The notes below the pieces were generated by a model. It saw only the letters and a program-made list of their open reading frames with translations, was not told where the DNA came from and ran no database searches. Positions 16,776-52,780 of a DNA stretch of 64,000 nt are shown here, in pieces. Position numbers and translations under genes: made by a program. Every line of letters begins with the position of its first letter. Within the stretch, counting starts at the first letter, position 1. The stretch comes from an uncultured Gammaproteobacteria bacterium (lineage in GTDB: Bacteria; Patescibacteriota; Patescibacteriia; Veblenbacterales; UBA10138). The stretch covers positions 740,095 to 804,094 of the forward strand of contig CAYVOI010000001.1 of assembly GCA_964453605.1 (NCBI GenBank), given 5' to 3'.

Positions 16776-16910
16776 GCACCATGAAGTATGCGCTCGTGAA
16801 CAATCACCTTTATGGGCATGTCAACTGGCTGTGCCATGAAGTAGATTGAATCATCACTTCATGGCGTGCCATGAAGTTGCGCGAATGCAATGAGCGCATA
16901 CTTCATGGTG
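16776..16910. repeat. Nested inverted/direct repeat module built on the core CCATGAAGT, overlapping the 3' end of ssrA
   Basis: 17-bp perfect inverted repeat ccatgaagtatgcgctc (16779-16795) and gagcgcatacttcatgg (16892-16908). Inner hairpin gccatgaagt/acttcatggc (16833-16865). Three direct and two inverted copies of the core. Confidence 0.7.
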
Positions 16911-17285
16911 GAGGTGACGGGGTTTACACCCGTGTCTAGCGACGCAACCTACCCCAAGGTCCAAGTTCAGAGCCGCTGGTACTCTAGGTAGATAGAGCGG
17001 CTCAAAAATCTACCTGAGGTTGTTCCGAAGTGTCGGTAGTAGACCGGAACAGCTCCTGCTACCCTGCTCGATGAATGACGTTCCTAAGGGCTATCGAGCG
17101 TCACCCCTAGGAGCGGCGTTCGGTTTTTAAGCGAACACTGGTGCCAAGGTAGCAACGCGGAACGCGTCCCTTACCTTAGCGACAAATGACTTGGCATTTG
17201 TAGAGTGCTAATTTTTTAAGGCAGACCAGCAACTGCCACCTGCTTGAAGCAAGCTAACGTGCGCTATCGAATGGTAAACACCCCC
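16906..17285 (-). ncRNA. ssrA: tmRNA (SsrA), about 380 nt
   Basis: The 5' end GGGGGUG pairs with the 3' end CACCUCC, including a G3:U70 wobble, then ACCA. T-arm ACGGG-UGUAAAC-CCCGU. The 5' AUUCGAUAGCG resembles E. coli AUUCGACGGG. H-type pseudoknot motifs. A helix-5-like hairpin GUUCG-CUUAAAAAC-CGAAC carries UAA in its loop. Adjacent to smpB. Confidence 0.75.
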
Positions 17286-17294
17286 CACCACGGG

Positions 17295-17322
17295 CCACTA
17301 GCCAATGGCCACTAGCCAATGG
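17295..17322. repeat. Perfect tandem duplication of the 14-mer ccactagccaatgg, between smpB and the ssrA 5' end
   Basis: Read directly from the sequence. Confidence 0.8.
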
Positions 17323-35172: not shown

Positions 35173-35865
35173 TTAGCGCACGTAGGCGCGCGAGGTTACC
35201 GTGGTCTGTAGGTAGCTCGAGACGCGGTTATCGACCTTAGCGTCGATAGTGCTGACGGAAAGCGCGATGGTGACCTGCGGCTGCACATCAGGGGTACAGC
35301 TCGGTGGCGTGAGGCCTCCACCGCAGACCGTGCCATTGCTGGAGAAGGGATCACCGAGCGGTGTGGGGTAAAAGTTTAAGGCCTCCACGGAGAGCGTGGG
35401 CGAGGTTATAACCTCAAACGGGCCACCGTCACGGCTTACCTGCACACAGCCAATGTCAGTGACCCCGTCCGCGGAGGGGCACTGCGCCTGCCCCCGCTGG
35501 AGCCGAAAGCTAACCGAGGTGTGCTCGGCTGTCAACAGCTTGAGCTCGTTCGATTGGTCAATCCGGGCTGGCACGGTACTGCCGAGGTACGAGCTGTAGT
35601 CTACCGTATCAGCGCGCACTTCGCGTGCCAGCACGTCCATGAGGTAGCGCGCGTTGGTAGAGGCAGTCTGGCTGGAGCGGAGCCGACTTTGGGCGCGCTG
35701 CACGTTCACAAAAATTTCGGCAATAATTACGCTGGCCAGCATGAAGATGAACATGGCCACCACAATTTCCATCAGGGTGAACCCCGCACCACTTTTTCCG
35801 GAAAAAAAGTGGTGCGGGGCAAATCCCCTTAAGCGCGGTGAAGACGTTGGTAACGTGTGTGCCAT
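35173..35865 (-). CDS. Prepilin-type N-terminal cleavage/methylation domain protein (minor pilin or pseudopilin)
   Basis: GFTLMEIVVAMFIF class III signal motif (G/FTLxE). Confidence 0.65.
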   Translation of the reverse strand: MAHTLPTSSPRLRGFAPHHFFSGKSGAGFTLMEIVVAMFIFMLASVIIAEIFVNVQRAQSRLRSSQTASTNARYLMDVLAREVRADTVDYSSYLGSTVPARIDQSNELKLLTAEHTSVSFRLQRGQAQCPSADGVTDIGCVQVSRDGGPFEVITSPTLSVEALNFYPTPLGDPFSSNGTVCGGGLTPPSCTPDVQPQVTIALSVSTIDAKVDNRVSSYLQTTVTSRAYVR

Positions 35866-35866
35866 A

Positions 35867-36586
35867 CTACCTCCAGTTGTATATGTACTCCACCAGGCTT
35901 AAGCTACGCCTGAGTACGCCCCCAAAAAGCCCAGCGGCTGGCCAGGCCACCTGCGACTCCACCCGGTAGCCAACTTTAGTGCCGCCAGCTGGCGGGCAGT
36001 CTCCGTTCGGCCGGTCGTAGTAGGTGGTGGTCGTGGAACCGTTCTGGCACACCGGGTCCAGCATCAGCGCCCGGTAGTACCCGGTGGGCTGGTACGAGCT
36101 GGGGAGGGTGAGGGTAGGGTCTTGGCGCCAGAGGTAGAACTGGCTAGCGCTGCCCCGGAAGAGCTGCAGCGCGGGCTGGCTAAAGTTGGCGCGGCTGGTG
36201 TCAAAGGGCACAAACTGTAACGTCCAGCTCCCTGGCGTAGTGGTGCTAGGGTCGTCGGACGGCGGGGCGAACAGGAGAGCGGCGCCGCAGTACGTACTCC
36301 GGCAATCATTCTGCCCCGGGGTGAGGCCGGTGTCCCAAGTGCGGGTAGGGTCGCTGTGGGAGGCAGCCAACCAGTTACTATCGCGTATGCCCCGCACCAC
36401 CTCTATGCCCTCGCGCGCCAGCTGCAGCGCCACCACGCGCTGGTTTGAGGCGGCGGTGGCGCTCACGTTCTGTAGCGTCAGGGTGAGAATAGCCCCTAAG
36501 CCCAATAGTATCATGCCTATGGCCATGGTTGCCTCGAGCAAACCTTGGCCGTGGGGTGGGTGGTCGAGGTAGTACCTTAGTACCAT
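35867..36586 (-). CDS. Minor pilin-like protein (PilW/PilX-like)
   Basis: GQGLLEATMAIGMILLGL prepilin-like N-terminus. The start is probably the internal ATG at 36586, which avoids a 92-nt overlap with the upstream gene. Confidence 0.5.
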   Translation of the reverse strand: MVLRYYLDHPPHGQGLLEATMAIGMILLGLGAILTLTLQNVSATAASNQRVVALQLAREGIEVVRGIRDSNWLAASHSDPTRTWDTGLTPGQNDCRSTYCGAALLFAPPSDDPSTTTPGSWTLQFVPFDTSRANFSQPALQLFRGSASQFYLWRQDPTLTLPSSYQPTGYYRALMLDPVCQNGSTTTTYYDRPNGDCPPAGGTKVGYRVESQVAWPAAGLFGGVLRRSLSLVEYIYNWR

Positions 36587-36590
36587 AGGG

Positions 36591-37229
36591 CTACTGGATA
36601 AATACCTGACCAGTGGCAGCGTTGAGGTGCACACTGAGCGTTGTGCCGCCACCCTTGGGGTGCTGAATGGTGATAACAGCATTGCTAGCGCTGTTGTTCA
36701 CCGTCACGGTTTCCACAAATGGGTCAAACACAATATCGAGCGGGTCCCCAGGCTGCAGGTTGGAGAACTTGACGTTGGGTGAAACCTGCACCGCGCGCAC
36801 AAAAATAAAGTTCTGATCAGCCTCTGAGTAGGTGTAGGTTTTAGGTGCCGCTGTTTCACAATCAGCAAACTCGATAATGGTGTTGGGCGAGGTCAGGTGT
36901 AGGCCGTAGCCCGAGGGTGGTGGGCCAGCCGTGGAGAGCAGGTGCCCGGGGTTGGCGGGGTCGGGGCAGGGTGACGGAGTAACTGTGCCAGAGCTGGCAG
37001 CTGTCTGTGCTTCGCGTAACGCAGCTTGCACAATACCGGCCGCACCGTTGAGCTCATCACGGTACTGGCCGCTACGAAAGTTCACAATGACGAGGCTGGT
37101 GATGATGACAAAAATACCCATCGAAACCAGGAGCTCCACCAAGGTGAAACCACGCAGCACTCGAGCACTCGAGCACTCGAGCACTCGGCCAGAGGAGTAC
37201 CAACACATGCTATTGGCAGGAGCTTGCAT
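36591..37229 (-). CDS. Prepilin-type pilin-like protein with an octanucleotide repeat in its leader-peptide coding region
   Basis: LRGFTLVELLVSMGIFVII class III signal peptide. Four copies of CGAGTGCT lie upstream of the cleavage site. Confidence 0.65.
   Translation of the reverse strand: MQAPANSMCWYSSGRVLECSSARVLRGFTLVELLVSMGIFVIITSLVIVNFRSGQYRDELNGAAGIVQAALREAQTAASSGTVTPSPCPDPANPGHLLSTAGPPPSGYGLHLTSPNTIIEFADCETAAPKTYTYSEADQNFIFVRAVQVSPNVKFSNLQPGDPLDIVFDPFVETVTVNNSASNAVITIQHPKGGGTTLSVHLNAATGQVFIQ
37156..37187. repeat. Perfect tandem repeat (AGCACTCG)x4
   Basis: Read directly. The unit length of 8 is not a multiple of 3, and the repeat lies inside a CDS. Confidence 0.9.
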
Positions 37230-37270
37230 GGTTTAGTGACCTAGTGTTCTAGAGACGAAGTGATTGTATT

Positions 37271-38056
37271 CTACCACAAAAACGAACTGTACCACTGCCA
37301 AAGGGAATCGCCCCAGAGCAGCACCAGGAGCGTAGCTGCAGTAAGGAACGTGCCTAGAGGTAGCTGACTACCCCACGTTTTTTTACCTGTAGCGAGGAGG
37401 GCCAAACCTACCAGGGCGCCGCTCACGTAGGCAAGCAAGAACACCAGCAGCAAACTAGGAAAACTCCCAACTATAACGGCGACGAGCGCGCCAAGGCGTA
37501 TGTCGCCGTCCCCTACCCATCGGCCCCTGGACACCGCGTACTGTAACCAAAACCAGCTAGCACCCACTAAACCTAAGACTACCAAGAGGTGCCAGTCTTT
37601 CCCTGCCAGCACGTTGAGCATAAACGCGACTACCAACCCGGGTAGCGTCACTTCATCGGGCAAAATGTACCAGCGTGCATCAAACACAAACAGGGTTAAG
37701 AGCAGGCTCGCAAACACACCGAAGGTTAAAAACGGCAGCACGTTTGCAAACGTAAACACGGAGGTAAGCTGCGGCGGGAACCACAGGTACCCCGCGAGCC
37801 ACAAGAGTCCGCTCGTAAGCTCCACCAACGGGTACTGCCAGGAGATGGGCTGGCGGCAGGTGCGGCAGCGGGCCCGGAGGAGTACGAAGGACAGTAGCGG
37901 CAGGTTGTCGTACCAGGTGAGCTGTTTCCGGCACTTAGGACAGTAGGAGCGAGCAGTTAAGAACGGCTCACCGTTCGCCAAGCGGAGTATGACTACGTTG
38001 AGGAAGCTGCCCAGGCAGAGACCAAAGAGAAAAACTAAACTGAGTATGACTATCAT
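37271..38056 (-). CDS. pilD: Prepilin peptidase (A24 family)
   Basis: N-terminal CxxC...CxxC zinc motif (CPKCRK...CRTCRQ) and a polytopic A24 domain. Confidence 0.85.
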   Translation of the reverse strand: MIVILSLVFLFGLCLGSFLNVVILRLANGEPFLTARSYCPKCRKQLTWYDNLPLLSFVLLRARCRTCRQPISWQYPLVELTSGLLWLAGYLWFPPQLTSVFTFANVLPFLTFGVFASLLLTLFVFDARWYILPDEVTLPGLVVAFMLNVLAGKDWHLLVVLGLVGASWFWLQYAVSRGRWVGDGDIRLGALVAVIVGSFPSLLLVFLLAYVSGALVGLALLATGKKTWGSQLPLGTFLTAATLLVLLWGDSLWQWYSSFLW

Positions 38057-38099: not shown

Positions 38100-39917
38100 T
38101 CACGGGTGCCCCAGCCACCAGGAGCGATGGGCAACATAGTCTAAATATTCCTGGCTGGGCGCTTCAGCATCAAACCTAATAGCAAGGAGCAGCAGACCCT
38201 GTGAGGCGGGAAGCTTACCCTGCTCTAGGGGGACGGCGGCCTGCAAGTACAGGTAGTGAGCCAGGCTTGGTGCGAGTAAACGATCAACGTGCCCCAAGTC
38301 CGTGGGCTTAAAACTGGGCGGGAGCGACGCAGCATGAACGAGGGCCCCGCGTGCACTGGCCTCAGTAGCAAATACCTGGTAACTAAAGCCCCACGCTCGG
38401 CTATGCAGGTTCGGGCTCACGTTCTCAACTGGAAACGTGGTAAAGAGCGGCCGGTGGGCTCTGTCGGCGTACTGCCAAGCAAGGTCTAAAAACTCACGCC
38501 GCTGAGCTAAGAACGGCAACTTGTCATAGGCTGGGCTAAAGTGCGAAAAGTCCGCGGGCAACATCGTAGCACTAGTATCCTCCAGCAAGGTTACGTCCGG
38601 CCGCAGGTGTTCTACGAACTGCACATAGAAAAACGAAAAGAGCTCGGTATCGATCACCCAATCTGTCTGTTTCACAAGCAGTACAGCCCGGGGTGGTAGC
38701 GAGGCGAGCTGCTCGTGTGCAACGTCGTAGATGAGGTGCTGCCGGCTTAGGTCAGTGGCCGACCGATGCTCTGCCCAGAGCGCCAGCGGTACACTACAGA
38801 GCACAGTGGTAGCAAACACACCAAGCCAAAGTCGCCGCGACCTGACTTCCGGCCACTTCAAGATAACCCAATGGTACAGCCAGGCTGTTCCCATAGCAGC
38901 GTATACCACAACTATGGCATAGGCCACAATGTAGTACACCCGGTATACGTAAGCTACGTCTAGCCCCCAGCTGTAGTTTCTGAGAAACACAATGAGCACA
39001 CTCTGAGTAAACCAGGTACCTAGGAGGAGGGTCCCTACCCGCCAATCACGCCAGCTTATGAGTAGGCCTAACAGAGCCGCGAGAACGACAATCCAACCGA
39101 ACTCACTCGGCCAGCTCTGGAAAAAATCGGTCACCAACCCCAGCTTCCCACTGGCTACCGCTAGCTTGCCGAAATCTGCGTACTGAGCTCGACTCACGTG
39201 CTGCCAGAAGCTGGTCCAGGTGTGAATGTTACCCCAATTAAGTGCAGGGTGAGCGCGTGATAAGAGTGGTAGTACACCGTACACCGAACAACCCGCAAAG
39301 AAAAACAGCGCGCTCCGAAGCGTCACGTGCCAATCGCGCAGTAACCTAGGGTCGGTAAAGGCTGCAAATGCCAAGTAGACAGGCAGCAGGAGTACCATGA
39401 GCTGGTGCACCCCTGTGCCCAAACCCACTAAAACCATGACAGCATACCAGAACGAACGCTGCCCAGTCTCACCCCACTTAAGTAAGAAATAGAATGTCGT
39501 GAGTGCGAACAGGGCGTACAGGCTGTAGTGACCAGCTACCACTGACTGAGACCAAAACGTGGTTGAGAAAGCCAAGGTCAGTGCCGCCACGAGCGCCAGG
39601 GGGCGAAGCTTAGTCAGGTGACGGACAACAAGGTAGGTAAAGTAGACCGCACCCGCCCCACCTATACCCGAGAGCAGGTTCACCCGCCACGGAACTGAGC
39701 CAAACGGGAGGAATGTGGCAAGTTTCCCCAGTAACACATAGAGCGGGTAGCCAGGTGGGTGTGGCACTCCCAGAGTGGCGGCCGCGGTGATGAACTCTGA
39801 ACTATCACGCACGTAGAGGGACGGCGCCAAGGTAGCGACGTACGCAGCCAGTGGCAGCCCAAAAGCTACCACACCCCAGACATCAACCTTGGTGAACAGG
39901 GAACGCCACACGCTCAT
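38100..39917 (-). CDS. Polytopic membrane protein, DUF2723/TMEM260-like GT-C-fold putative glycosyltransferase
   Basis: N-terminal motif RDSSEFITAAATLGVPHPPGYPLY is characteristic of the DUF2723 family. More than 10 TM segments. Confidence 0.55.
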   Translation of the reverse strand: MSVWRSLFTKVDVWGVVAFGLPLAAYVATLAPSLYVRDSSEFITAAATLGVPHPPGYPLYVLLGKLATFLPFGSVPWRVNLLSGIGGAGAVYFTYLVVRHLTKLRPLALVAALTLAFSTTFWSQSVVAGHYSLYALFALTTFYFLLKWGETGQRSFWYAVMVLVGLGTGVHQLMVLLLPVYLAFAAFTDPRLLRDWHVTLRSALFFFAGCSVYGVLPLLSRAHPALNWGNIHTWTSFWQHVSRAQYADFGKLAVASGKLGLVTDFFQSWPSEFGWIVVLAALLGLLISWRDWRVGTLLLGTWFTQSVLIVFLRNYSWGLDVAYVYRVYYIVAYAIVVVYAAMGTAWLYHWVILKWPEVRSRRLWLGVFATTVLCSVPLALWAEHRSATDLSRQHLIYDVAHEQLASLPPRAVLLVKQTDWVIDTELFSFFYVQFVEHLRPDVTLLEDTSATMLPADFSHFSPAYDKLPFLAQRREFLDLAWQYADRAHRPLFTTFPVENVSPNLHSRAWGFSYQVFATEASARGALVHAASLPPSFKPTDLGHVDRLLAPSLAHYLYLQAAVPLEQGKLPASQGLLLLAIRFDAEAPSQEYLDYVAHRSWWLGHP

Positions 39918-41449
39918 GGTTTGGGGTAGTAGAGTAGCTGGTCTCCCAGCACCTCCCGTAGCTCGTAGTTAGACCTAATGGCCGCTATCATCTCATTAGT
40001 AAGCGGGGCGTTGCCGTCACGCACGTTGTAGCGACGATGGTCGATAGTGCCGCGAGCCATGCTGAGCAACACCAGCTTAAACTCACGCCGATTGAACTTA
40101 GTAACAAAGAGGCTTTGATCCCACAAGCCACGACGGACAAGGTGGGGGTAGGTACGCGAACCAAGCAACCAACTCTGCGCTCTAACAAACGGAGCGAACT
40201 GCATATCCTCTTCAAAAAAATCGGCGCTCCCCAAGTGTATTAGGCGCTCTACCACGGTAGTGTAGTCAGGCAGGCGTTGCCAGGCCGCGTCGACCACCGT
40301 GTTCAAGTTTTGTATAGCAATCCCCTGCACAATGGTAAAACTAAGGAGCGCGAACAGCACCAGCACGCTGCGGTTCTCTGTAAACCAGCGGAGCAGCGGT
40401 GCCAGTACCTGGCCCTTGAGTGAACTCCAAGCCAAGAGACCAACCATAAGGCACGCGAGCTGGAACTCAAACCAGTAGTTGGGTCCTGCCCCTGCTCGGG
40501 CATAGGCCACCAGCGACACGAGCGAACCCGCGAGGTAGAGCATAAAAAAGGCTAGCGACGAACGGGGGCTGAGCTCTACCCTACCCCTGAACCTAGCCTC
40601 GAGAAATAGCGCGGTGGGGAAGAGCAGGAACGCTGCCGGCCACGTAGCGAGCGGTGCTAGCCCCAAGCTCAGGTTACTAAAGTAGAACCGCTGACCGGTA
40701 TTCACAGTTATGAGGTGGACAAAGAACTGGCCTCCAGTCAACTGATTACACCACCAAAAAAGTGCTACCACCGGCACCACAAAAGCCAGGGCATAGGCAA
40801 GCGCGGTGCGGCGCTGACCCTGCCACCACAGGTAGAGTGTGGCGGCGAGTGGCCCCGCCAAAAATGTGGTTTTCGTGTAGAACGCCAGCACGAAGCAGGG
40901 CACCGATAGCCACAAACTAAAGCGGCTTGGCCGGGTGATGAGGAAAGCTCCCAACATGGTAAAGGCTAATCCCAAAAAATCAACGCGGTCGAGCACGGCC
41001 CACCCCATCACGTTCGACACCGACATAAAGGCGAGCGCACCAGCGAGCGCCAACGCGCGGCCAGCTGAGCGGCGCAGCACGGCATAAACCAAACCAGAAA
41101 TAGCGAGGAGCGAGACAATAGAGAGCAAGCGCCCCACGGTGTGGTCAAGCGGCAGGTGGAAAAAACCTATGATAGTGGCCGACAACAACACAAAGAGCGG
41201 CGGGTAGGGGCTGGTGAAGTAGGGCGGCTGTGCCAGTGGCGGGTAGATGGTCCTAAGCTCAGGGTGTGCTAAGAACAGCTTCACCTGGTTTAGCACAAAG
41301 TTCTCGTTGCTATCGAGCGCGTAAGGGTAGGTAACGGCGCTCCAAGCGTAGTAGAACCAGAAGATGGCAAATACGGCCACCACCACACTGAACCAAAACC
41401 ACGGTTTGGTGATGGTGCTAAATCGATACTCTGCGCGGGAGTGATCCAC
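39914..41449 (-). CDS. Polytopic membrane protein, GT-C-like putative glycosyltransferase (ArnT/PMT-like topology)
   Basis: 511 aa with 11 or more TM helices. 4-nt overlap with the upstream gene. Confidence 0.45.
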   Translation of the reverse strand: MDHSRAEYRFSTITKPWFWFSVVVAVFAIFWFYYAWSAVTYPYALDSNENFVLNQVKLFLAHPELRTIYPPLAQPPYFTSPYPPLFVLLSATIIGFFHLPLDHTVGRLLSIVSLLAISGLVYAVLRRSAGRALALAGALAFMSVSNVMGWAVLDRVDFLGLAFTMLGAFLITRPSRFSLWLSVPCFVLAFYTKTTFLAGPLAATLYLWWQGQRRTALAYALAFVVPVVALFWWCNQLTGGQFFVHLITVNTGQRFYFSNLSLGLAPLATWPAAFLLFPTALFLEARFRGRVELSPRSSLAFFMLYLAGSLVSLVAYARAGAGPNYWFEFQLACLMVGLLAWSSLKGQVLAPLLRWFTENRSVLVLFALLSFTIVQGIAIQNLNTVVDAAWQRLPDYTTVVERLIHLGSADFFEEDMQFAPFVRAQSWLLGSRTYPHLVRRGLWDQSLFVTKFNRREFKLVLLSMARGTIDHRRYNVRDGNAPLTNEMIAAIRSNYELREVLGDQLLYYPKP

Positions 41450-42216: not shown

Positions 42217-42690
42217 CTACTGAATCCCGTTCGGCGTAGCGGTGTGAGCTGTGCCGGTCGCAAGACCAGACATAGCTGCGTTCTCAGTAGTGAAAGCCAA
42301 ACTATAGCTGATACAGGTGGTGCCTGCATTGGTGCACCCCGAGGGGGTAGGCGTGTAGGCGTAGGTATCACTCTGCGGGGGAACTGGAACCTTACCCATG
42401 TACACCGTGCCCCCAGCACTGCCGCTCGCAGTGAAACCGGCTGCTGTATTACTGAGGGTTGCGGCAGTAGCACCGCCAAGGTTACCACTGTAGGCTGGAT
42501 AGCCAGTCTGGTCACCGTAGTAAAGCTCCATGGCGGTGACGAGCTGCTTGATATCGCTGACGCGCTTGGCGTCACGGGCCTTCTGCCTCGCGTTCTGCAG
42601 GGCCACAATGGCCAGGGTCGACAGAATGCCGATGATGGCAATAACCACCAAGAGCTCGATGAGGGTAAAACCTTTGTGTTGGTTCTTCAT
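42217..42690 (-). CDS. pilA: Type IV major pilin, copy 2 (amino-acid sequence identical to copy 1)
   Basis: Same as copy 1. Confidence 0.85.
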
Positions 42691-42706: not shown

Positions 42707-43045
42707 GCGTAAAACTGGTTGACTTAAATTGACTTTACTAGTATAGCACATTTTACACTGGAGCGCTAGAGCACTAAAGTACTAGAGCACTACGGCACTA
42801 GAACACTGAGCGGGTGGACCATAACCCTACTTGGCGTAGACGCGCAGTGCATCCAAAGCCTTCCAGAGCATGGCACCGATTTCTTCAGTTAGAGCGGTCA
42901 ACTTTGCAGCTGCTTGTGCTGAGCAGTACTGTTCCTGAGCTGAAAAATCAAGTTGGTCCATTTTACCCCTAAGCTGTTCCCGAAAATCCCGACCCATAGT
43001 GGTCTAGTGATCAGGTGCTCTAGTGCTAAAGTGACCAAGTGTAGC

Positions 43046-44254
43046 TTAGGCTGCGCCTGACAGTCGGTACATGGGGAGCAGGATAGACGACACAATAAAC
43101 CCAACCGCCACGCCCATGACAAGCATGATAGCCGGCTCCAGTAGGGTCACCAAGTTGGTCACCAGGTTGTTAACCTCGTGGGTGTAGAAGGCACTGAGGC
43201 GTTTGAAAATTTCTTCCAAGCGACCGGTTTTCTCGCCCACGATCATCATCTGCGGCAGCATGGGCGGCACCGCACTGCTCTGGGCAAAAATGGTGGCAAT
43301 AGAGTTACCATCTTCCACCTCTTTGATAGTCCGCTCGATGATATCCTTATACACGGCACTGCCCACCACGTTAGCCACAATGCTCAGAGACCTGGTGAGC
43401 GGCACGCCGCCGACCACCAGCGTGTACATAGACTGGGTGAACCTGACCAGGTAGATGTGGCGGTAGATGGTGCCAACAATGGGAATTTTAAGCTGCAGCG
43501 TGTGCCACACGTGCTTGCCCCTGGGGGTTTTCACAAACAGGCGCGTGAGCACCGCCACGGCCGCAATAATAATGAGGAGCAGCCACCAGTAGCTGGCCAT
43601 GAAGTGGCTCACGGCTATGAGCAGCTTGGTCGAAAACGGCAGCTCGGTCCCGGCTTCAACTAAAACCTGGGTCAGCTTAGGTACCACGTACACCATCATG
43701 ACCGAGCCCACCACAACCAAACCGGAAAGAATGAAAGCGGGGTAGATCATGGCGCCCTTGATGCGCGAGGTGAGGTCGTAGTTCTTCTCCGCTTCGTCGG
43801 CCAGGTAGTTCAGAATTTCGTCAATCTTCCCCGAGCTCTCGCCAGAGTTCACCATGTTGATGTAGAAGTCGGAGAATACCTCGGGGTACTTCCCCAGCGC
43901 GGCCGACAGCTTGGCCCCGCCCTCCACTTCGTCCGCCACCTCGGACACTACTACCTTGAGCTTAGGATTTACGGTCTGCTTCTCCATGATGCGGAGAGCC
44001 TGCACAATCGGCACGGTGGCTGAGGCCATCACGGCGAGCTGGCGGGAGAAGATAACCAGGTCGCGGGTCTTGATGCGAGCGATTGGGCTGGCAGCCAAAA
44101 ACTGGAACCGGCTCACCCGCCGCTCTTCTACCATGAGCGGCGTTAGGCTGCGGTCGGTCAGAATTTCTACGGCTACCTCACGTGAGGGCGCCTCCACCAT
44201 GCCGCGGATAGACTTACCCTCGAGGTCTTTGGCTTGGTACGCAAACAGTGCCAT
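43046..44254 (-). CDS. pilC: Type IV pilus assembly platform protein PilC (GspF family)
   Basis: 402 aa with two GspF-like repeats, three TM helices and a typical N-terminus (MALFAYQAKDLEGK). Confidence 0.9.
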   Translation of the reverse strand: MALFAYQAKDLEGKSIRGMVEAPSREVAVEILTDRSLTPLMVEERRVSRFQFLAASPIARIKTRDLVIFSRQLAVMASATVPIVQALRIMEKQTVNPKLKVVVSEVADEVEGGAKLSAALGKYPEVFSDFYINMVNSGESSGKIDEILNYLADEAEKNYDLTSRIKGAMIYPAFILSGLVVVGSVMMVYVVPKLTQVLVEAGTELPFSTKLLIAVSHFMASYWWLLLIIIAAVAVLTRLFVKTPRGKHVWHTLQLKIPIVGTIYRHIYLVRFTQSMYTLVVGGVPLTRSLSIVANVVGSAVYKDIIERTIKEVEDGNSIATIFAQSSAVPPMLPQMMIVGEKTGRLEEIFKRLSAFYTHEVNNLVTNLVTLLEPAIMLVMGVAVGFIVSSILLPMYRLSGAA

Positions 44255-50776: not shown

Positions 50777-52780
50777 CTAGCGGCGCACAAACGTCGGCAA
50801 ACCCTTAGCAAAGTCGGCCATGCCCGGAGAGGGGTTAAGCTGTAGGCGGCCATCGGCCACAAACTGCTCGGCCGGCTCCTTGGTACGCACGTTAATGTAG
50901 GTACGGTCGAGCTTGAACTGGCGGGCAAAAACTGACCCCGAAACCTGCAGCGGCAGCGTGCTACAGGCAGTGCCACCGCTAGTGTCGTAGCAGCTCTTGA
51001 ACTTACCAAACCCGTCGTACAGGTCGCCGTTCGGGTCGTGAGCCACGTACTTCGGCTTGCACACCGCGCAGGTACCCGTACCGTTGGCCGACAAGCACTG
51101 GGCGTCCGAGCTGCACGTGGTGTCTGCTTTCTGGGGGTCCTGGCTCAGGCAGTACTTCTGGGTGTAGGCCGGCGCACAGCTGGCGTCGTCGGTGCAGGCC
51201 ACACCGCCCGCGCTGTGGTCGCACACCTGCTGCGGTGCCTCCCGGCGCCCCAGCACAATAAAGCTGCCAGCCAGCTGGCTTACCGTTGGTAGTACACGCA
51301 CATCCCCTAACACAATCCACGTTACCGAGGCCAGCTGCCGGCTCGAGCTCACGGCTGCACTCGTGTCGTAGCTTATGTTGTTGCTCACGAGCAAGTTGCC
51401 ACGCACAACGATGGTGCCGGCGGCGCTGGTGGTGTCGCTGCTGTTCTTAAAGGTAACGCTGCCGGCCGAAACCGACGCAGTGTCAAACACCTGCTGGCCA
51501 GAGTAGCTGGGGTCGGTTTCAGCCACAACTGGCGGCACAATAACCTTGCCCCCCAGGGGCTGGCTAAAGAGAAACGAGAGGTCACTCGCAGCAGGGTACA
51601 CCACGGGGAAGGTGTAGGTATCGGTGAGCACGGTCTTAGTGGCACAATCAGTGGCCGTGTGACCAGCCGCCACATTGCTGCACAGCGGCAGGGGTAAGCC
51701 CGAGCTGCTGCTGGCACAGGTACAGTTCGCCGGCGTGTACAGCCCACGGAAATCAAAACGGCCTAAGCGGAAACTGTAGGGGTCGGTAAGGCCAGGGGCG
51801 TTGGTCGCGGGCACCAGCAGTGCTAGGCTCGGTGTTTTACACTGTGGGTTAGCGGAGCTGGTATCGGTGCACTGGCTTATGAAGTTAGTGAAATTGCCGG
51901 TACCACCAATTTGCACCAGGTACTGCGCGTTGTACTGCGAAGCGGGTGGCGAAAAGGTGGTCCTGATACCTCGACCACTGTAAATGTCACCACCAAAACC
52001 CTGCAGGTAGGGGAACAGCACTTCATTATTAGCGTTACAATATATAGGATCATTAATACAAATCCACCCGGCGCCATAGGCCGTTGGCGTAGCCGCACTG
52101 CTATCACCGCCGGTCTGCTGCCACGCCCAACCTTTGAGGAACGTCGCCCGATGTTCCACGTCCGGCACGTCAGCTGTGGGCGCAGCCGGGCAATCCACGT
52201 ACGCCCCGGTGGTCGTATTAAAGCACTGGTTGAACTTTACCTGGGTCGCATAAGTTGGGCCGGTGAGTGCAATCCACCCCCCCGCGCCCTGGTTCACCAC
52301 CCGCGCCCAGCCCGTCAGCGCCCCCGTGAAGGCGGTCTCACAGTCCACCACGGTTGCCGGCGTAGCACTGTTGTAGCAGGTGAAGTTCGCCGCCAGGCTC
52401 GGGTTACCTGGGTTACCACTCGGCACCGCCAAGCTGCCGCCGCAGGTGGTGCCAAAACAGATCCAACCCAAACTACTTGACCAGGCGTAGCCAATCATGG
52501 TGCCGTGCTTTTTGTCAGGTGTTTGGTTTATGTCGAGCTTTAAGCCGTACGACACGCACGAACCGGGGTTCGTTGTGCAGCTAGGGTCATTGAGCGCGTT
52601 CAAGGACACCCAGCCCGTGTTGCCGCTCCAGGCCCACCCCCCAATGTTGTAGACCGTGGTAGTGCCGGCGGCCTGCGCCGTGGGCAGTTCAAAGTACCAG
52701 CTGGCAGCCAGCGCCCCAACCACAAAAACCCCTGAAATAGCAATACTTCCAAGATAGTGCCAGCGCACAATTCTTGTCAT
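50777..52780 (-). CDS. Hypothetical secreted Cys-rich protein (667 aa)
   Basis: N-terminal signal/anchor, many Cys pairs, G/T/S-rich. Confidence 0.55.
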   Translation of the reverse strand: MTRIVRWHYLGSIAISGVFVVGALAASWYFELPTAQAAGTTTVYNIGGWAWSGNTGWVSLNALNDPSCTTNPGSCVSYGLKLDINQTPDKKHGTMIGYAWSSSLGWICFGTTCGGSLAVPSGNPGNPSLAANFTCYNSATPATVVDCETAFTGALTGWARVVNQGAGGWIALTGPTYATQVKFNQCFNTTTGAYVDCPAAPTADVPDVEHRATFLKGWAWQQTGGDSSAATPTAYGAGWICINDPIYCNANNEVLFPYLQGFGGDIYSGRGIRTTFSPPASQYNAQYLVQIGGTGNFTNFISQCTDTSSANPQCKTPSLALLVPATNAPGLTDPYSFRLGRFDFRGLYTPANCTCASSSSGLPLPLCSNVAAGHTATDCATKTVLTDTYTFPVVYPAASDLSFLFSQPLGGKVIVPPVVAETDPSYSGQQVFDTASVSAGSVTFKNSSDTTSAAGTIVVRGNLLVSNNISYDTSAAVSSSRQLASVTWIVLGDVRVLPTVSQLAGSFIVLGRREAPQQVCDHSAGGVACTDDASCAPAYTQKYCLSQDPQKADTTCSSDAQCLSANGTGTCAVCKPKYVAHDPNGDLYDGFGKFKSCYDTSGGTACSTLPLQVSGSVFARQFKLDRTYINVRTKEPAEQFVADGRLQLNPSPGMADFAKGLPTFVRR

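Follow-up and report, generated by a model that had tools for sequence, protein, structure and literature searches.

Four perfect tandem copies of an octanucleotide lie in the leader-coding part of a minor-pilin-like gene, in a 64-kb stretch of DNA (64,000 nt; the whole stretch analysed is called the window below). Is this array a slipped-strand switch that turns a pilin on and off, as an earlier note had proposed, or is it a part of something larger? The evidence given here indicates that it is, on balance, probably the downstream arm of a miniature inverted-array element that has no ORF of its own, of the type that flanks S23p/PF05635 genes. This identity is better supported than the phase-variation claim.

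The array and the pilin gene that carries it

By direct reading, (AGCACTCG)x4 occupies positions 37156-37187 without a partial copy at either side. Tandem Repeats Finder reported it with period 8, 4.0 copies, 100% matches and a score of 64, the highest of any tandem repeat in the 64-kb window. The coding (minus) strand reads (CGAGTGCT)x4 and lies inside the ORF 36591-37229. A perfect 32-nt period-8 array is expected about 2e-10 times per strand (64,000 x 4^-24, there being 24 self-matching bases). The 16-mer GAGCACTCGAGCACTC, with at most 3 mismatches, gave 4 matches compared to 0.51 expected, and none of 100 shuffles had as many. Four copies are also present in the Logan assembly of run SRR12313480, which is 100% identical over 6,639 nt (contig L001); the array is therefore not peculiar to one assembly. 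Direct reading, the repeat finder and the second assembly thus bear out the four perfect octamers described earlier, and their unit length of 8 is indeed not a multiple of 3. In the same window, a tandem duplicate of GGCCACTAGCCAAT (2.1 perfect copies, 17293-17322) is located just upstream of the tmRNA gene (16906-17285) and is bracketed by the inverted sequences GTAAACACCCCCCACCAC and GTGGGGACTGTTTAC.

The features of the locus, all on the minus strand, are as follows.

42754..43043, minus: sister element (pair B) between pilC and pilA, inverted degenerate octamer arrays around a 56-aa ORF.
37271..38056, minus: prepilin peptidase gene pilD (Pfam A24_N_bact and Peptidase_A24).
37268..37276, minus: extended -10-like motif TGGTAGAAT, overlapping the pilD stop codon and kept in relatives as TGGTA[G/A]AAT.
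37231..37262, minus: degenerate upstream (5') arm CACTTCGT CTCTAGAA CACTAGGT CACTAAAC, inverted relative to the perfect array.
37188..37230, minus: 43-nt spacer between the arms of pair A; it starts C ATG and holds the ATG at 37227-37229 and a second in-frame ATG at 37206-37208.
37156..37187, minus: the four perfect octamers, downstream (3') arm of the inverted-array element, coding for RVLECSSARVL of the putative leader.
37182..37184, minus: in-frame GTG in the first repeat unit, giving a 12-aa leader MLECSSARVLRG (sequence reading).
37158..37160, minus: in-frame GTG in the last repeat unit, giving the leader M-L-R-G; in frame at any copy number (simulation of 0-8 copies).
36591..37229, minus: minor-pilin-like gene, 212 aa from the ATG, cleavage site G27/F28 (Pfam and NCBIfam matches, synteny).

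The product reads MQAPANSMCWYSSG-RVLECSSARVL-RG|FTLVELL..., with the G27 codon at 37149-37151 and the F28 codon at 37146-37148, so that the array was correctly placed upstream of the G|F cleavage site. A class III signal, G|F(T)L.E, is followed by a hydrophobic N-terminal helix. The N_methyl domain (PF07963) matched residues 26-47 with an E-value of 2.3e-5 in Pfam, TIGR02532 matched residues 26-48 in NCBIfam, and E32 is invariant in 17 aligned sequences (the array-bearing pilin and 16 homologues). Orthologues with 35-64% identity and conserved gene order were obtained from Patescibacteria MAGs and metagenomes; together with the 876-kb NCBI contig on which the identical protein is coded, they suggest a small-genome bacterium of the CPR type as the source. 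For the locus search we used an 8-sequence alignment, the 17-sequence alignment being too diverse, and the GTDB representative set that was searched does not include the window's own genome.

Four pilin-like genes come after the prepilin peptidase gene, of which this is the first; it is part of a type IV pilus cluster that is complete and lies on the minus strand. This cluster comprises pilM, pilO, pilB, pilT, pilC (43046-44254), pilA (42217-42690), two PMT_2/TMEM260-like glycosyltransferase genes, pilD, the minor pilins and ligA. The two membrane glycosyltransferase genes (38100-41449) lie between pilA and pilD, are present in orthologous loci too, and are candidates for pilin O-glycosylation. 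The start of the second pilin-like gene (35867-36682) is probably mis-annotated: the called ATG at 36526 (219 aa) cuts off a plausible class III motif, HG|QGLLEA, and an alternative ATG at 36586, 4 nt past an upstream stop codon, gives a 13-aa leader. A second period-8 repeat is found at the very beginning of this gene (MVLRYY..., 36570-36588). It reads TAGTACCA x2.4 on the plus strand and GGTACTAA GGTACTAC on the coding strand, and its unit is similar to CACT/TACT arm units.

The motif TGGTA[G/A]AAT occurs at the same place in all 11 examined orthologous loci with pilD upstream (L002, L005, L006, L007, L009, L010, L132, L135, L137, L138 and L141). It overlaps the last two codons of pilD (Trp and stop), and the non-coding AAT is conserved as well. 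TGGTAGAAT is a probable extended -10 promoter, lying within the end of pilD, from which the minor-pilin operon would be transcribed. On this reading transcription is predicted to start about 7 nt after TAGAAT, near 37261, and the minor-pilin mRNA would carry the element described below at its 5' end.

An inverted partner, a sister element and related loci

We searched the 64-kb window for three CACT units with a period of 8, allowing up to 1 mismatch, and obtained 12 matches, compared to 0.44 expected. All 12 fall in four places, 37156-37187 and 42756-42807 on the plus strand and 37235-37262 and 42998-43041 on the minus strand. These make up two inverted pairs, and a pilin gene follows closely after each. 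As only 0.44 matches are expected in the whole window, an independent match this near the array has a chance of the order of 1e-3.

In the first pair (pair A), 18 of 24 positions of the upstream arm are complementary to the array when G-U pairs are counted. The predicted duplex of the two arms has an energy of -19.3 kcal/mol, against -15.1±3.8 kcal/mol for shuffles, 14% of which equal it. Arm-arm pairs were absent from the predicted ensemble, in which the array folds on itself (about -20 kcal/mol) rather than with the upstream arm. HMM searches found no PF05635 gene or relic between these arms, nor elsewhere in the 64-kb window.

The arms of the second pair (pair B; 42997-43043 and 42754-42800/42811) are 47 nt long and 70-75% complementary, and their duplex, at -43.6 kcal/mol compared to -19.0±4.5 kcal/mol for shuffles, is a strong predicted stem. 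The 56-aa ORF between them (42827-42997, minus strand) had no match in Pfam and NCBIfam searches. Its C-terminus (EEIGAMLW) is weakly similar to the C-terminal helix of PF05635 proteins, with a pairwise E-value of 3e-5 and a profile E-value of 0.053. Directly after pair B follow the extended -10 of pilA, TGTGCTATACT (42740-42750), and a Shine-Dalgarno sequence (SD). We dropped an invertible promoter ('inverton') as an explanation for the pilC|pilA pair, its arms being 70-75% complementary and the -10-like box of pilA lying outside them.

The window thus has two copies of the element in 64 kb. Their matching arms are about 75% identical, and the unit CGAGTGCT is one base off the consensus CTAGTGCT of the downstream arm of pair B. 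No direct repeat or target-site duplication flanks either pair. Rfam families were not found at either element; the Rfam matches in the window are one tRNA and one tmRNA, with no rRNA.

We surveyed the pilD|minor-pilin junction in 14 independent orthologous loci, the window included. In four of these (L006, L007, L010 and L140) the junction holds a PF05635 (23S_rRNA_IVP) gene of 118-125 aa, flanked by inverted 7-8-nt arrays with degenerate arms of the type TAAATCC.../...GGATTTA. Another four (the window, L132, L135 and L011) have inverted arrays without an ORF. The arms of L132 are the heptamers GAATTAT.../...ATAATTC, and the hairpin of L011 has a z-score of -3.4. Neither cassette nor arrays were present at the remaining 6 of the 14 junctions. 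L007 carries a second PF05635 cassette at pilC|pilA, and its two positions are those of pairs A and B. In the comparison with relatives that the earlier note had suggested, the repeat was missing from the closest orthologue (64% identity), whose leader has 10 aa. Both the CACT search and the relatives show what was missed when the array was viewed as a lone repeat: it is one half of an inverted pair that belongs to a recurrent element class.

A metagenome scan with CACTNGAG x3 as the query yielded 120 contigs, ascertained by the presence of the array. The same octamer was observed in inverted arrays around bona fide PF05635 genes (Pfam E-values of 5e-22 to 1e-39) in L035, L037/L062 and L082. 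L035 has (GAGCACTC)x5 (AAGCACTC)x11, then the PF05635 gene and then the inverted array (TTGAGTGC...TCGAGTGC); the architecture of L037/L062 and L082 is the same. An ORF-less hairpin made from the identical unit AGCACTCG is present in L067 (fold z = -5.5). Of the 120 contigs, only 4 carried a PF05635 gene, and these stand for 3 independent loci, one locus being shared by two contigs. In L120 (979-1725) long inverted arrays, (TTAAGTGC)n and (GAGCACTT)n, surround a gene for a 189-aa membrane-anchored protein that is not PF05635. Octamer arrays are therefore not exclusive to IVP genes.

Copy number differs between otherwise near-identical contigs. GAGCACTC is present in 10 copies in L048 (378-457) and in 5 copies in L072 (9292-9331), where the flanks are about 94-99% identical and the 12 nt directly on each side of the array are the same. 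In the arm of a PF05635 cassette, 4 copies (L035, L066) were observed compared to 3 (L084), in contigs that are 95-98% identical. Arrays of this octamer are therefore prone to slippage and unstable across populations and strains. A further candidate for a 3-versus-4 polymorphism, L021/L046, was rejected, both contigs having 4 perfect copies.

The cassettes of the relatives, the octamer at PF05635 genes and the repeats of the Coxiella IVS (intervening sequence; see below) together place the array in this element class, as a derivative that has probably lost its ORF. We propose that the element occupies a recurrent site, with the pilD stop codon and the TGGTAGAAT that overlaps it on one side and the sequence coding for the mature pilin on the other, and that its internal ORF was lost in the window's genome. 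The spacer would then provide the ATG, and the downstream arm would be read through in frame as a long class III leader of 26 residues plus G-1, to be cut off by the prepilin peptidase. As the peptidase would remove it, the leader sequence would be nearly unconstrained. The identity of the four units may have come from recent replication slippage or from homogenisation of the arm. A frameshift-prone site, in which the ATG is in frame at 1, 4 or 7 copies, would be a by-product. The association of the array with an element is moderately novel.

Start codon, reading frame and the case for a switch

Whether the array lies within the coding sequence, as had been stated, depends on the start codon. 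The ORF does include it, and the relatives favour the upstream ATG. The candidate starts of the pilin are ATG 37229, ATG 37208, GTG 37184 and GTG 37160. An SD is detectable for only about 11 of 42 genes in the window, and SD analysis is thus uninformative on the pilin start; none precedes ATG 37229. Several window genes have a TATAAT-like (-10) box close to the ATG, at a distance of about 11 nt, for example TGTGCTATAAT before 52780; such boxes lie upstream of 50777-52780 and 662-1825, among others. The window-wide lack of SD sequences, together with these near -10 boxes, suggests leaderless or very short-leader mRNAs.

Three observations make the upstream ATG the favoured start. L132 has no start codon after its 3' arm, which means that this arm must be translated. 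In the leader of L135, two octamers of related sequence, GTGCTTTAGTGCT, are read in the frame of the window's array, as C-F-S-A compared to C-S-S-A. The third pilin-like gene of the operon (35173-35865) has a strong SD and a 27-aa leader. The distance from TAGAAT to the ATG is also similar, being 38 nt in the window, 36 nt in L135 and 39 nt in L005, and the gene callers of both source assemblies picked ATG 37229. From these sequence comparisons, translation likely passes through the array.

It is rather unlikely that the array is left untranslated, in or at the 5' UTR, with the start at the GTG of the last unit (MLRG) or of the first unit (MLECSSARVLRG). Copy number would then alter only the spacing or structure of the 5' UTR and never the reading frame. 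Such a start is consistent with the full-cassette relatives L006, L010 and L140, in which the pilin begins directly after the downstream arm, with the short leader MLRSYRG of L005, and with the GTG of the last unit, which is in frame at any copy number and has a GAG 7 nt upstream; that ATG 37229 lacks an SD points the same way. On the other hand, a leader of 4 residues is below the range of the orthologue alignment (6 to about 27), and both GTGs lie inside a predicted 13-bp hairpin of about -20 kcal/mol, within which GTG initiation would have to occur. The arms of L132 and L135 equivalent to the array must be translated, the spacing between TAGAAT and the ATG is conserved, and the ATG was the choice of the gene callers of both assemblies.

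With the ATG as the favoured start, we considered whether the array could be a selected contingency locus, in which slipped-strand mispairing shifts ATG 37229 in and out of frame and so turns the minor pilin ON or OFF; the downstream minor pilins would possibly be switched too, by polarity. The mechanism is coherent and, from the sequence, possible. In its favour are the perfect copies, a unit length not divisible by 3, the position of the array after the favoured ATG and before the cleavage site, and a target gene for a surface structure. Established analogues (Neisseria opa and pilC) also have repeats in leader-coding regions, and the octamer is polymorphic in copy number in other metagenome contigs. 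In a simulation of 0-8 copies, which takes up the earlier suggestion to check the start codon at other copy numbers, the ATG was out of frame except at 1, 4 and 7 copies, and the observed 4 copies correspond to an in-frame state.

Several findings make a selected switch of this kind improbable nonetheless. Variation was not seen at the array itself: the only contigs on record with this locus are the 876-kb NCBI contig and the Logan contig (2 samples), with 4 copies each. By exact sequence, the pilin and the gene downstream of it were found on no contigs beyond these two, the prepilin peptidase had no match, and N-terminal variants of the array-bearing pilin were not found among 15 billion proteins. 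Since the GTG of the last unit is in frame at every copy number, the OFF state would be leaky at best, and extra GTG/TTG starts arise at 2, 5 and 8 copies. Four copies are low for a high-rate switch, Tandem Repeats Finder found no other such repeat in the 64-kb window, and the repeat is missing from the closest orthologue.

The earlier proposal that a slip frameshifts the gene on or off therefore holds in part. It is right for the ATG, which is in frame only at 1, 4 and 7 copies; it does not extend to the in-frame GTG, and the octamer (the CGAG variant) is free of stop codons in all frames. A slip by one octamer in either direction would abolish the product initiated at the ATG without necessarily silencing the gene. 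Most economically, the frameshift-proneness of the array is an incidental liability or a slow evolutionary toggle, a by-product rather than a demonstrated selected switch. If the array does slip, it would be a case of repeat-mediated phase variation in Patescibacteria, in minor pilins.

The boldest combination of these ideas is speculative, and we hold it to be quite unlikely: that IVS-type elements were domesticated in Patescibacteria as pilin 5' modules that give a start codon and a disposable leader, with arm slippage toggling the minor pilins that prime pilus assembly. If true, the result would be a phase-variable pilus of an ultra-small episymbiont, built from a selfish element.

That the array is instead a stand-alone neutral microsatellite, unrelated to the IVS-type arrays, in which an 8-mer happened to be duplicated within a leader that tolerates it and the nearby CACT periodicity is a coincidence, is very unlikely. 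The poor pairing of the pair A arms, the array-free closest orthologue and the fact that most metagenome arrays of the octamer are not beside PF05635 genes would all fit. Such an origin is difficult to reconcile with an inverted partner only 43 nt away (the chance of the order of 1e-3 noted above), with a unit one base from the pair B arm consensus, and with cassettes or arrays at the same junction in 8 of the 14 loci.

Least likely of all is a regulator acting at the RNA level, in which the self-complementary array (CUCGAG palindromes) and a 10-bp closing stem (AAACCAUGCA / UGCGUGGUUU, 37225-37234 with 37147-37156) mask the start region and adjust how the minor-pilin mRNA is translated or processed by RNase III. 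The 101-nt segment 37140-37240 does fold at -39.9 kcal/mol (z = -4.1, with none of 200 shuffles as stable), the closing stem was also found as an inverted repeat with 90% complementarity, and IVS stems are RNase III substrates (PMC4990558); but a perfect tandem repeat folds well trivially, there was no Rfam match, the orthologues are too divergent to align and so lend no covariation support, and counts of G-U versus A-C mismatches in the cassette arms, which bear on an RNA- versus a DNA-level stem, had no asymmetry and hence no strand preference.

Comparison with known systems

The preferred reading, an ORF-less inverted-array element at the 5' end of a pilin gene, has its nearest parallel in the IVS of 23S rRNA. 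In Coxiella burnetii, the IVS with its S23p ORF has terminal inverted repeats that form an RNase III stem, and tandem heptamers at its 5' end, 2 or 3 by strain, with an RNase III site at the first repeat (PMC4990558). In our literature search on arrays flanking S23p/IVP genes, this Coxiella paper (PMC4990558) alone was found. The element in the window resembles 23S rRNA IVSs with a PF05635 ORF (Coxiella burnetii, Leptospira, Salmonella) in having inverted terminal arms around an ORF or its remnant. Its arms likewise contain short tandem repeats, and its octamer flanks real PF05635 genes, as in L035; the ORF of this class is prone to reductive evolution. It differs in that it lies outside rRNA: pilD and a pilin gene border it, and it belongs to the 5' region of pilin mRNAs. 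Pair A lacks the ORF and pair B has it reduced to 56 aa, the pair A arms are poorly complementary, and one arm is apparently translated as a leader peptide.

We know of no assigned function for the PF05635 family and its element class since the IVS was first described. S23p/PF05635 cassettes and ORF-less array relics are found repeatedly at the 5' regions of pilin genes, where the arms can be leader-coding, and these cassettes give the family and its element class a concrete, testable context outside rRNA. They also carry a warning for annotation, as long 'leaders' and odd start sites at pilin genes can be element-derived.

In Patescibacteria (CPR), type IV pili are regarded as central both for attachment to hosts and for DNA uptake. 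To our knowledge, the regulation or variation of pili in uncultivated Patescibacteria is essentially unstudied, and we are aware of no earlier example of repeat-mediated phase variation in this group. Contingency repeats in leader-coding regions include the CTCTT repeats of Neisseria opa, the poly-G of pilC and the tetranucleotide repeats of Haemophilus. In common with these, the array is a perfect repeat with a unit length other than a multiple of 3, placed after the start codon and ahead of the part that codes for the mature surface protein, such that a slip of one unit shifts the frame. Unlike them, it has 4 copies only, no heterogeneity in the two contigs seen, and in-frame alternative starts within the repeat; it also belongs to an inverted-array element and has no similar loci nearby.

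Correia elements of Neisseria and REP/BIME sequences are small ORF-less inverted repeats in intergenic or 5' positions at multiple sites, which may donate promoters or processing sites and whose stems are RNase III substrates. Pair A is similarly a small ORF-less inverted-repeat element in a 5' region, although its arms are tandem arrays of a 7-8-nt unit rather than unique terminal inverted repeats, and there is no target-site duplication. The pilin itself conforms to class III prepilins in its G-1 / F+1 / E+5 motif, its N_methyl domain and its adjacent prepilin peptidase gene. It departs from them in its long leader, which, with the ATG as start, would number 27 residues (G-1 counted) and would be coded in part by the DNA repeat.
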